Assembly (NCBI GenBank): GCA_965215565.1
Contig: CBDCDZ010000004.1
Span: forward strand, 1,280,001-1,344,000
Length of the DNA stretch: 64,000 nt
From: Trueperaceae bacterium
GTDB taxonomy: Bacteria > Deinococcota > Deinococci > Deinococcales > Trueperaceae
Reading direction: 5' to 3'
Shown in pieces: positions 27,001 to 30,000 of this stretch. Position numbers: made by a program. Positions within the stretch are counted from its first letter, which is position 1, and every line of letters begins with the position of its first letter.

Positions 27001-30000
27001 TCGCCTCGGCAATGGTGGCGTCCGAGCCGAAGGCGTGGCACGATATTATTCAGAAGATCGAGGACACAGGCGCGGACGGTATCGAACTCAACTACGGCTG
27101 CCCGCACGGGATGAGCGAGCGCGGCATGGGCGCGGCGGTAGGGCAGGTGCCGGAATATTGCTCGATGATTACGGAGTGGGTGACGGACGTGGCGAGCATC
27201 CCTGTGATCGTCAAGCTCACGCCGAACGTCACCGACATCGGCAAGCCTGCGCAGGCTGCCGTAAAGGGTAAGGCGGACGCGCTCTCACTGATTAACACCA
27301 TCAATTCCATCGTCGGGGTGAATTTAGACAGTTTTCAGCTCGAGCCCAACATCGGCGGCAAAGGCTCGCACGGGGGCTACGCGGGTCCGGCGGTGAAACC
27401 CGTCGCCTTGCACCTCTTGTCCGTCGTGGCAAATGACGAAGAGGTCCAGCGGGCGAACTTGCCCATCTCTGGTATGGGCGGCATCCAGACCTGGCGCGAC
27501 GCGGCAGAATTTCTTCTTTTAGGCGCGACGAGTTTGCAAGTGTGTACGGCGGTCATGCACTACGGCTTTCGCATCATTGAAGATTTGACGGATGGGCTCT
27601 CGAACTGGCTAGACGAGAAAGGCGCGGCGTCCATCAATGAGATTATCGGGGCGTCGGTGCCGAGGGTAAGCAGCTTCGGTGACTTCGACCTCAGCTATAA
27701 AGTCGTCGCCCGCATCAACCCTGAGACCTGTATCAACTGCAACCTCTGTTACGTCGCCTGCGATGAGGGTGCGCACCAGTGCATCGACCTGACGGTAGAC
27801 GGCGCGAAAATCGACCCCGCGACCTACACCGGCAGCGTCAAGCCGCAGCCCGTCGTGCGCGAAGAGGATTGTGTTGGATGTAACCTCTGCTCGCTGGTCT
27901 GTCCGGTGGATGAATGCATCTCGATGGTGGAGATGCCGCCGGAGCATGAAAGTGTCACTTGGAATGAGTTAAGCACGAATAAGCCGGAGGTGACGCGGGA
28001 TTGGGAGGCGATGGAGCGGTATCGGGAAGAGGTTGGAATTGATATTCATTAGGACTGAGAGAAAAGGGTAAAGATGAAAGAGGAAAGAGATGAGACAAAA
28101 GAAAAAGTCAATCGTTTCGAGGACCTGGTAGCGTGGCAGAAGGCTCGAGCTTTGACCAAATCGGTGTATCAAGTCACGAAAAGAGGCGAATTCGCTAAAG
28201 ACTTTGGGCTGACAAATCAGATACAGCGAGCTGCCGTTTCAGTTATGTCGAATATCGCCGAAGGATTTGAACGTGGACGCCGCACCGAATTTCATCAGTT
28301 TTTGTCCATCGCTAAATCTTCTTGTGGAGAGGTAAGATCGCAACTTTATGTTGCTTTCGATGTTGGCTATCTGCAAAAGCCAACCTTCAACGCCCTCTTA
28401 ACCCAAGCTGAAGAGGTTTCACGGGTTGTAGGCGGACTAAAAACCGCTGTCCAAAAACAAAAAGTGAGAGGAAAATGAAGAGAAGAGGTTAAAGTGGGTT
28501 CTTCTTTTCTCTTTCCTCTTTAACCTTTTCTCTCTTTTACCCTACAGGAGGACACTTTGAGCTTGCTCATCCGCAACGCCGACATCATCACCGCCGACTC
28601 GCGTACGACGGCCGACATCTACTGCGAAGGCGAAACCGTCACCCGCATCGGTCAGAACTTGGACGCTTCCGCCGATGAGGTCATCGACGCCTCTGGCAAA
28701 CTCGTCTTCCCCGGCTTCATCGACCCCCACGTCCACATCTACCTGCCCTTCATGAGCACCTACGCCAAAGATTCCCACGCGACGGGCAGCCGCGCCGCGC
28801 TCATGGGCGGTACGACGACCTTTATCGAGATGTGTGCGCCGAATAAGGGCGAAGACCTTTTGGAGGGTTACGAGCTGTGGAAGGGTAAAGCCGAGGGCGA
28901 GAGCGCCTGCGACTACACCTTTCACATGGGCGTGCCTAAGTTCGACGAGAAGAGCGAGGGGCAACTTCGTGAAATCGTCGCGGACGGTATTTCATCCTTT
29001 AAGGTCTTTTTAGCGTACAAGGGCTTTTTCGGCGTGAATGACGAAGAGCTTTTCAAAACGCTAACGCTGGCAAAAGAACTCGGCGTCATCGTCACGGCGC
29101 ACTGCGAGAACCCTGAACTCGTCGCGCAGCTTCAAGCGAAGCTCTTAGCAGAGGGCAAGACCGGACCCGGCTACCACGAGCCGAGCCGCCCCGAGTGGGT
29201 GGAGGCGGACGGGACGCATCACTTCGCGACCTTTTTGGAGGCGACGGGCGCGAAGGGTTATGTCGTTCACCTCTCGTGTGCGCCCGCCCTGAAAGCGGCG
29301 CTAGACGCGAAAGCTCGAGGCGTAGACCTCTCCATCGAAGCGGTCATCCCGCACCTCTTGTTGGATAAAACGCTCGCCGAGCAGGACGGGTTAGAGGGCG
29401 CGAAGTACGTCATGTCGCCGCCCTTGCGGAAGAAGTCAAATCAAAAGGTCTTGTGGGATGCGCTGGCGCAAGGGTTTATTGACACGGTAGGCACAGATCA
29501 CTGCCCCTTTGATACCGAGCAAAAAGAGATGGGGTTAGACGACTTCACTAAGATTCCTAATGGGATTCCCGCGTTAGAGGACCGCGTCAGGCTCCTCTAC
29601 ACCTACGGCGTGAGTCGCGGCGACTTGGACGTGCACCGCTTCGTAGAGGCAGCCTCAACCAAAGCCGCCAAGCTCTTCGGGCTCTTTCCGCGTAAGGGAA
29701 CGGTTGCGGTGGGGAGTGACGCCGACTTGGTGATTTATGACCCGAATGCAAAAGGTACGATTTCAGCTCAGAATCAAACGATGAACGTCAACTACAGCGG
29801 ATTTGAAGGGACGGAAGTTGATGGGCGCGTCGAGACAGTGACGGTAAGAGGTAAGGTGCAAGTTAAAGAGGGTGAGTTCGTTGGTGAGCAGGGGTGGGGA
29901 ACGCTACTGAGACGAGAGGCGGGTGCTTAGGTGTTGACTTTCACTTCTAACCTCTCCACAAACCTCTCGTGTGCTTCGCTTTGCAGGGCGTTTTGCAACG

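Follow-up and report, generated by a model that had tools for sequence, protein, structure and literature searches.

A four-helix-bundle gene between inverted heptamer arms, and gene-less arrays of the same units, at gene junctions in Trueperaceae and other bacteria

The 64,000-nucleotide stretch of a Trueperaceae chromosome analysed here (the window) carries, between preA and hydA, a gene for a four-helix-bundle protein enclosed by inverted arrays of heptamers. The unit formed by gene and arms is real and general. It has a recurrent anatomy, its protein is under selection, its repeat units are specific to protein clades, and it turns over by replacement at fixed junctions. We think that it is a selfish, exchangeable cassette, replaced at gene ends and at existing hairpins with the assistance of its own protein and by the catalysis of its host, and we give this reading a probability of roughly 55%.

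The gene, its arms and its protein

The locus consists of the following features:

26697..28052, + strand: preA, the host gene upstream (NF006183, above cut-off); its stop codon (28050-28052) abuts the left arm
28053..28101, + strand: left arm (model K3), beginning at the preA stop: seven purine-rich heptamers, all in register and of more than one variant
28074..28478, + strand: four-helix-bundle gene (S23p / 23S_rRNA_IVP, Avd-like), 134 amino acids (PF05635, TIGR02436)
28464..28494, + strand: second sense-type arm, overlapping the stop of the four-helix-bundle gene
about 28499..28542, + strand: right arm, rich in pyrimidines and the reverse complement of the left; it stops a few bases short of the hydA Shine-Dalgarno site
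28557..29930, + strand: hydA (dihydropyrimidinase), the host gene downstream (TIGR02033, above cut-off)

All three genes lie on one strand. The four-helix-bundle gene is the only copy of the PF05635 family in the genome, and scores 128.4 bits against a cut-off of 33.8 for that family and 115.7 against 24 for TIGR02436. Coordinates and family matches agree with the earlier note, which had placed the gene between preA and hydA with heptamers on its left and their reverse complement on its right. New to that description are the third arm at 28464-28494 and the position of the gene's start codon within the left arm, which also encodes the first residues of the protein.

As RNA, the two arms are predicted to pair over about 45 bp, which leaves the gene in the loop and its start codon inside the stem. 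The whole 518-nt cassette has a z of -2.3. Of nine left-arm positions sampled, five have pairing probabilities of 0.77-1.0, and the others fall in bulges or at ends. The second sense-type arm could pair with the right arm in an alternative hairpin, which makes the right end of the cassette a complete empty hairpin by itself; the long-range stem dominates in the model. Elsewhere on the chromosome, no left-right pair of arrays of the same type is spaced 300-700 nt, so that the pair enclosing this gene is the only one. There is no sigma-70-like promoter within 27900-28700, and the gene is therefore probably transcribed on the operon message.

The protein family and the stem recall the ORF-bearing intervening sequences (IVSs) of 23S rRNA in Coxiella burnetii and Leptospira, in which a member of the same family is encoded in a stem loop, with heptamers before the ORF, and whose distribution is sporadic and horizontally acquired, as here (PMC4990558). 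According to PMC4990558, Ralph and McClelland had suggested in 1993 that the ORF makes IVSs mobile. Here, too, complementary ends form the stem and the ORF occupies the loop. IVSs lie inside the 23S rRNA gene, whereas this unit is bordered by preA and hydA, the locus has no rRNA match, and no Rfam family reaches its gathering score. The cassette is further set apart by its location at mRNA operon junctions, its hundreds of gene-less companions, its clade-specific units and a search of five Trueperaceae that found no RNase III domain. We regard 23S rRNA IVSs as the published special case of the cassette.

A unit of this layout might also act on the message, if RNase III cut the long stem as it does in 23S rRNA and thereby split or destabilised the polycistronic transcript. 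The length of the predicted stem fits such a role, as does the layout shared with the Coxiella IVS, with heptamers before the ORF and an RNase III cut in the stem (PMC4990558). However, the catalytic domain of RNase III (PF14622) was found in none of five Trueperaceae (the control was positive in 8 of 14), the TIGR02191 match in this genome is partial and C-terminal only, and hundreds of empty arrays and their turnover would be left unaccounted for. We consider this explanation very unlikely.

PF05635 is the only Pfam match of the window's protein, whose structure model (pLDDT 92.8) is all-helical. The model has four long helices and aligns closely with XCC0516 (2GSC; Z 19.7, rmsd 1.1, 112 aligned) and BT_0352 (2RLD; Z 16.2, rmsd 2.6, 109 aligned). 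It also resembles Avd of DGRs in fold (4DWL: Foldseek E 0.014, TM 0.69; 8UB7: Z 13.9, rmsd 3.7, 116 aligned) at 10% sequence identity, and in its available text PMC10053308 remarks only on this likeness to Avd. Structure 2GSC is described as a homopentamer (PMC4990558), and Avd is a pentamer on an RNA stem-loop that it grips with all five protomers through flipped-out bases; it is non-catalytic and lies about 40 Å from the RT active site (bioRxiv 10.1101/2023.10.23.563531). By analogy with XCC0516 and Avd, the window's protein is probably a pentamer. Fold searches with the model returned no transposase or recombinase among the matches listed. To our knowledge, no catalytic site or role has been assigned to the four-helix-bundle fold, which speaks against the cassette reading.

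The gene is under purifying selection. Compared with its orthologue in the relative G035, it has a dN of 0.073, a dS of 1.25 and a dN/dS of 0.058 (for preA, dN is 0.012 and dS 0.47; the preA row of the relative G056 was erroneous and left out), and the family gene of a second lineage has a dN/dS of 0.069. Residues Q49, R52, S56, E63 and E86 are invariant or nearly so in the family. The dS of the gene is 2.6 times that of its neighbours here, and its composition is foreign, with a GC3 of 0.41 versus 0.72-0.74 for the neighbouring genes.

Arms and repeat units across bacteria

Arms were scored as present when they were inverted and comprised at least five units in all. The earlier note had counted such arms at 69 of 74 close homologues with enough flank among 80 fetched; our recount gives 67 of 73. 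Inverted arms also occur at 16 of 27 family loci in Trueperaceae, where 18 of 61 genomes hold the PF05635 family (the count and locus L009 include G033), and at 41 of 53 loci in ten hand-picked genomes (26/30 in five and 15/23 in five more). An even sample of Pseudomonadota, in which 55 of 301 genomes were positive and the best 29 loci were taken, has them at 18 of the 28 loci with flank. Controls gave 16 of 502 shifted windows and none of 250 of the genome's own small genes, and a test for direct instead of inverted repeats was positive at 17 of 130. Because seven loci were retrieved twice, they enter two of the groups, and kin are not independent in any of these cross-genome tallies. The same layout is seen in Bacteroidota, in a Riemerella record. 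Loci that lack inverted arms include the Avd genes of DGRs as well as distant family members, in line with the earlier remark that the most distant hits had no clear arms.

Judging by crude ORF calls, family gene and upstream gene point the same way at 90 of 102 loci, and in 73 of these 90 the arm begins no more than 20 nt from the upstream stop. None of 20 Pseudomonadota loci lies in rRNA. Six exact peptide patterns recovered no family gene from viral contigs, and none was found in 50,697 phage records.

Across phyla, each protein clade retains a repeat unit of its own. A genome may hold up to 11 paralogues, each with a unit of its own, and only one of 94 same-genome pairs shares a unit. Between genomes, proteins that are at least 60% identical have units within two changes of one another in 42-95% of pairs; below 50% identity, at most 2% of pairs do. 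The clade of the window's protein comprises 85 rows from more than 10 phyla, with an SH-aLRT support of 98 in a quick tree, and 73 of its loci have a four-base unit core in common. Among 43 representatives collapsed at 60% identity, the correlation between protein and unit vanishes (rho -0.07; 83 of 1000 permutations were as strong), and co-inheritance alone could therefore give part of the signal. No code relating residues to bases across the family was detected beyond the clades.

The stop codon of the host gene is in register with the unit in 32 of 70 gene-carrying units versus 11 expected, a result dominated by one clade; the same measure is flat for the empty arrays of this genome. A strand bias of stop triplets (80 versus 14 of 101) shrank to 25 versus 13 of 43 once clades were collapsed and was discarded.

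Gene-less arrays and turnover at gene junctions

Gene-less arrays were typed with seven profiles, K0-K6, that were learned by script, not with a hand-curated list of units. On chromosome C4 the profiles identify 288 sites, 276 of them in the intergenic DNA that makes up only 19% of the sequence, versus 5 and 4 sites in two codon-block shuffles. This agrees in kind with the earlier count of about 138 gene-less intergenic arrays against none in three shuffles, which was made by a different method. Searches with no prior list of units, at the 0.76 level, found 72 intergenic regions of period 7 and 16 of period 8; periods 5, 6, 9, 10 and 11 gave 2-5 regions each. In addition to the pair of arms around the gene, the window contains these arrays:

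24768..24841, no strand assigned: empty inverted array, 8-mer type K6, after an amidohydrolase stop
26608..26680, no strand assigned: empty inverted array, type K3, at the preT/preA junction
33864..33979, no strand assigned: one-armed array site, type K2
41010..41075, no strand assigned: empty inverted array, type K3
43070..43135, no strand assigned: empty array, type K0
47490..47560, no strand assigned: empty inverted array, type K0

Each type has one arm polarity at all 117 cleanly two-armed sites, which extends the earlier report that 26 of 26 two-armed sites had the polarity of the gene's arms; among 14 further two-armed sites that are interleaved, one is reversed. For array pairs less than 150 nt apart, the left-then-right order occurs 126 times and the reverse order never. 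Five of the seven learned models (K0-K4) correspond to arms of family genes with matching polarity, as had been claimed for five unit types, while K5 and K6 fall below threshold. The commonest type is K0 (108 sites), whereas the genome's sole family gene has K3 (22 sites), a discrepancy that weighs against the cassette reading. Between co-directional genes, 92 of 189 arrays begin no more than 15 nt after a stop (51 expected), and 21 end no more than 15 nt before the next start. One array lies directly upstream of rplN, consistent with the statement in the earlier note that empty arrays occur within the ribosomal protein operon.

Two-armed arrays are 47-116 nt long (10th-90th percentile), and unit number and order vary between copies. 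They have common central loops but only 2 of 131 are exact duplicates, which suggests that empty arrays are related as units without being copied exactly. Because the loops are found in both orientations, the arrays are not merely leftovers of deletions.

Comparison of orthologous junctions reveals replacement. At preA/hydA, G035 has the cassette with a different mix of units, G056 has an unrelated palindrome, and other members of the bacterial family have clean junctions or unrelated small genes. Related strains and G035 nevertheless all keep the cassette at this junction, contrary to what the cassette reading might suggest, and no joint that bypasses it was among those listed for contigs of four runs. 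At preT/preA, four genomes hold empty arrays of differing types, those of G035, G056 and G047 being distinct from the K3 array here. Our genome has 172 junctions in common with G035: the array type is the same at 13 and different at 7, and an array is present only here at 13 and only in G035 at 4; the corresponding figures for the 168 junctions shared with G056 are 5, 2, 14 and 4, and in both comparisons the one-sided classes are inflated by threshold misses. At a convergent junction, six genomes hold between them four unit types, and a seventh has no unit.

Units that contain the gene show the same behaviour. At one junction in Nostocales (30 loci), four loci are filled, one is filled with the gene inverted, one holds an empty array of similar unit and three have short clean spacers; other cargo also occurs. 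In relatives of G194, one junction was compared over 30 loci. The unit is complete at 11, internally deleted at 3 and missing at 16, and these states are interspersed on the tree of the flanks. Here, filled alleles replace the host gene's last codons, its stop and the spacer, and one deletion retains a short remnant between the arms. Gaps of 56-61 nt without a gene are found at L373-L379. At L380 and L381, where the gene is deleted, both arms have changed from 7- to 8-mers, which is not what the cassette reading predicts. A footprint search at another locus, L396, landed in a variable region.

The earlier note described gene plus arms as a mobile unit. Junction states and clade-tied units bear out that the two behave as one unit, and sister genomes hold the unit at different junctions, as had been reported for family genes. 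Sites filled in relatives are also, as stated there, either clean in our genome (at the L024 site) or occupied by empty arrays (at the L002 and L008 sites). The gene may also cause the movement or the empty arrays, but in Trueperaceae array density did not follow its presence, as detailed below.

The footprint is a replacement of gene ends, not an insertion with duplication. Target-site duplications show no excess over shuffled pairings among 131 empty and 102 filled units at five word sizes, and none is present at the clean-versus-filled junctions of Nostocales and the G194 relatives. One suggestive duplication was seen in the comparison of C4:8110 with G056. Integration of a circle that leaves an extra arm appeared plausible by eye at the window's locus but was detected by script at 9 of 129 loci and was rejected; the script undercounts mixed vocabularies and missed the window's own locus. 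A search for Y1 transposases gave one weak match in this genome and none in G035, G056 and G036.

The kinship to Avd raises the question of a satellite retroelement. The Avd-like pentamer would bind cassette RNA, recruit an RT in trans or a host polymerase able to copy RNA, and write variable numbers of units at gene ends. Such a process would suit the co-orientation with the upstream gene and the closeness of arms to its stop, as well as the differences in unit number and order among copies. Yet no PF00078 match was found in this genome (G000), in G056 or in G063, which has eight family genes, and there is no RT, template or variable repeat near the window's gene. Inverted arms are missing from the sampled Avd loci, among them those adjacent to an RT (L029, and L209 judging from its template-like flank), the loops of empty arrays occur in both orientations relative to transcription, and one filled copy is inverted. 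A retroelement thus appears improbable to us. That no RT was found in these three genomes and no RNase III domain in five Trueperaceae weakens retro-transposition and obligatory excision, respectively, and favours protein-assisted replacement.

Drivers of the arrays and relation to known systems

Under the cassette reading, a gene for an RNA- or ssDNA-binding protein would reside in the loop of a hairpin with arms of tandem 7-8-mers, and gene-less hairpins of the same units would be its non-autonomous companions, following the logic of RAYTs and REPINs with other parts. The pentamer may bind the periodic arm at about one unit per subunit, and such a ring would fit arms of three to six units. 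It could then promote annealing or patch-type recombination of single-stranded copies of the cassette at sites that open just behind stop codons, or at existing hairpins. What the junctions show is that an array overwrites an older array or the last codons, stop and spacer of a host gene. The chemistry would be provided by host recombination, slippage and template switching, which could yield mixed unit order, matched arms and occasional inversion. Hosts may tolerate the cassette because their stop codon is either provided by the left arm or precedes it, and because the stem would place that stop beside the downstream ribosome-binding site. This coupling across the stem, the binding of arms and the single-stranded intermediate are our inferences.

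Evidence that the gene drives the arrays is mixed, and a role of the protein is deduced indirectly. Among 61 relatives of G194, the family gene is present in 21 of 24 genomes with at least three array matches versus 12 of 37 others, and the one distant genome with arrays of the G194 type has a gene with matching arms and a common unit variant; kinship confounds such tallies of gene and array presence. Other genomes speak against the cassette reading. G431, G441 and G447 gave no family hit although they have arrays. In G036, where the only family hit is distant and unarmed, period-7 arrays reach 13 per 100 kb. Conversely, G023 and G032 have armed genes and 1-2 period-7 calls per 100 kb that resemble GC-rich noise. 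Over 14 Trueperaceae (100 kb for 12 and 400 kb for 2), array density is unrelated to gene presence, a comparison of low power. Also adverse is Nostoc PCC 7120, in which an identical protein is present on two plasmids as cargo of ISL3, with one arm lost, indicating that hitchhiking also occurs.

In the main rival, the arrays are host-driven repeats that arise and spread by replication slippage, template switching and homologous exchange between intergenic regions. The protein would be a passenger that binds the repeats and acts as an RNA chaperone or as a regulator of translation; its own arms would autoregulate it, and it would persist because it lets the host live with, or exploit, the hairpins. 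Arrays are plentiful in genomes without the gene, arm units change in concert where the gene is deleted, two-armed arrays are rarely exact copies, the start codon is inside the stem, and the same junctions also accept unrelated small genes and GTAG-type palindromes. Template switching can homogenise inverted arms and invert spacers (PMC8604942), and MacGregor proposed regulation or a mobile repeat-binding protein for such repeats (PMC4679880). However, array type differs between sister genomes (at 7 of 20 doubly occupied junctions in the comparison with G035, and at the convergent junction), a pattern not easily reconciled with a conserved regulon, and most array types here have no cognate gene, at no apparent cost. 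Host processes alone also leave unexplained the fixed polarity of each type, the preference for periods of 7-8 over others, and the attachment of one unit family to one protein clade in many phyla. We consider host-driven spread unlikely, although it deserves to be taken seriously, and continue to prefer the selfish cassette.

REPIN repeat units are palindromes of 20-40 nt, and the units described here are not. Instead, they are non-palindromic tandem 7-8-mers of variable number and order, and the associated protein is an all-helical bundle, unlike the HUH/Y1 transposase of the REPIN-RAYT system. The two systems resemble one another in that a short, single-copy type of gene stands between repeats of a family of its own, each paralogue has one type of repeat, and gene-less inverted pairs are spread through extragenic DNA (PMC3337134). 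Insertion sequences and MITEs are dispersed as near-identical copies with fixed ends, in contrast to the arrays of this genome.

Similar arrays have been described as G-rich repeats in Xanthomonas and Nostoc (PMC4692102) and as repeats in Beggiatoaceae (PMC4679880). Like those studied here, they are intergenic, located near stops and in ribosomal operons, often form inverted pairs, and have a patchy distribution. The two papers propose G-quadruplex or regulatory roles, and their available text gives no mechanism of spread and names no associated helix-bundle gene. By eye, L187 carries a unit of the Beggiatoaceae type, and at L226 and L082 Nostoc G-rich units stand among those of the window's clade in the same register. 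The cyanobacterial repeats known as STRRs also belong to these unexplained heptamer repeats, and Elhai et al. reportedly dealt with small dispersed repeats in 2008. No general system of a gene with heptamer arms was found described in the open-access literature.

The cassette provides a testable lead on the source of unexplained 7-base repeats in many bacterial genomes, linking the bacterial heptamer excess to ORF-bearing 23S rRNA IVSs and to a common protein family that has solved structures but no assigned function. Since each protein clade has its own candidate ligand, matched and mismatched pairs of protein and arm offer a direct test of both binding and mobility. Should the protein turn out to drive replacement, it would represent a new route to site-biased rewriting of DNA without a known catalytic fold. 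Going further, and at somewhat less than even odds, we suggest a class of mobile elements that lacks transposase, integrase and RT, in which a ring protein reads a 7-8-base unit and drives the writing or overwriting of hairpins. Heptamer arrays in Cyanobacteria, Xanthomonas, Beggiatoaceae and many other bacteria would all stem from this class, as would ORF-bearing rRNA IVSs, and GxxExxY genes would be a nuclease-based counterpart that uses 8-9-mers.

The one paper that a search on GxxExxY genes (TIGR04256) brought up describes no such arms in its listed entry. Their protein, which we take to be PD-(D/E)XK-like, is unrelated to the four-helix bundle and the repeat periods differ, but the layout is like that of the cassette, with inverted 8-9-mer arms seen by eye at five of five loci.

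Operon junctions used by cassettes and by other small genes

Several operon positions, whose gene names were judged from sequences, are used by more than one cassette (a four-helix-bundle gene between inverted heptamer arms). Several cassettes each are found at the trpE-trpG junction (loci L021, L023 and L026), at an ABC-pair junction (L007, L010 and L024) and upstream of ruvA (L009, L011 and L012), and two at the cas1-cas2 junction (L004 and L019). The cassettes that share one of these positions belong partly to different clades. The preA-hydA junction, which holds the cassette of the window, is also used in Thermaceae (L078/L184, Calidithermus), and a cassette in a Chloroflexia genome lies upstream of a hydA-like gene (L107).

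Unrelated small genes occur at the same junctions as cassettes (L113, L114, L124, L126, L132 and L214-L221), and we take these to be methyltransferase-like, PIN toxin-antitoxin, NUDIX-like and DUF29-like genes. Because unrelated small genes enter them too, the cassette junctions are general insertion hotspots. The preA-hydA operon of the window contains a further sporadic small gene:

29927-30604, minus strand, Uma2 family gene, convergent with hydA

Arrays in the source genome and its relatives

Many arrays of the commonest unit type (K0) in the source chromosome hold an inserted, non-periodic short hairpin of ~24 nucleotides (for example, at 792089, 2589891 and 3632851), in some cases with additional nested hairpins. 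These insertions are similar to the small dispersed repeats of Nostoc. Within the window, a decayed inverted array at 31441-31510 is read as the N-terminus of an ORF (31439-32806), and one contig in run X4 carries a fresh, left-arm-like array at the matching position.

Heptamer arrays are very dense in the comparison genome G036 (13 per 100 kb; L295-L299). Their units are of the window clade's family, with wide spacers and conserved extensions, and no armed four-helix-bundle family gene was found in this genome. The catalytic domain of RNase III was not found in the five Trueperaceae searched (the source genome, G035, G056, G036 and G023), the source genome giving only a C-terminal partial match.

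Atypical family genes and the same layout around another protein

Two plasmids of Nostoc PCC 7120, gamma (L447) and alpha (L448), carry an identical four-helix-bundle protein as cargo within ISL3 elements; both copies have lost the left arm and retained the right. In NZ_CP046705.1 (L449), an insert bearing a right-type arm of its own divides a family gene into two parts. Two loci with Avd-like genes, L029 (G050) and L209 (G064), have flanks resembling template repeats, and are probably diversity-generating retroelements.

Inverted arrays of 8-9-mers, recognized by eye, lie on both sides of GxxExxY (TIGR04256) genes at all five loci examined (L240-L244, in G061 and G064). Their layout is the same as that of the four-helix-bundle cassette, with a different encoded protein.
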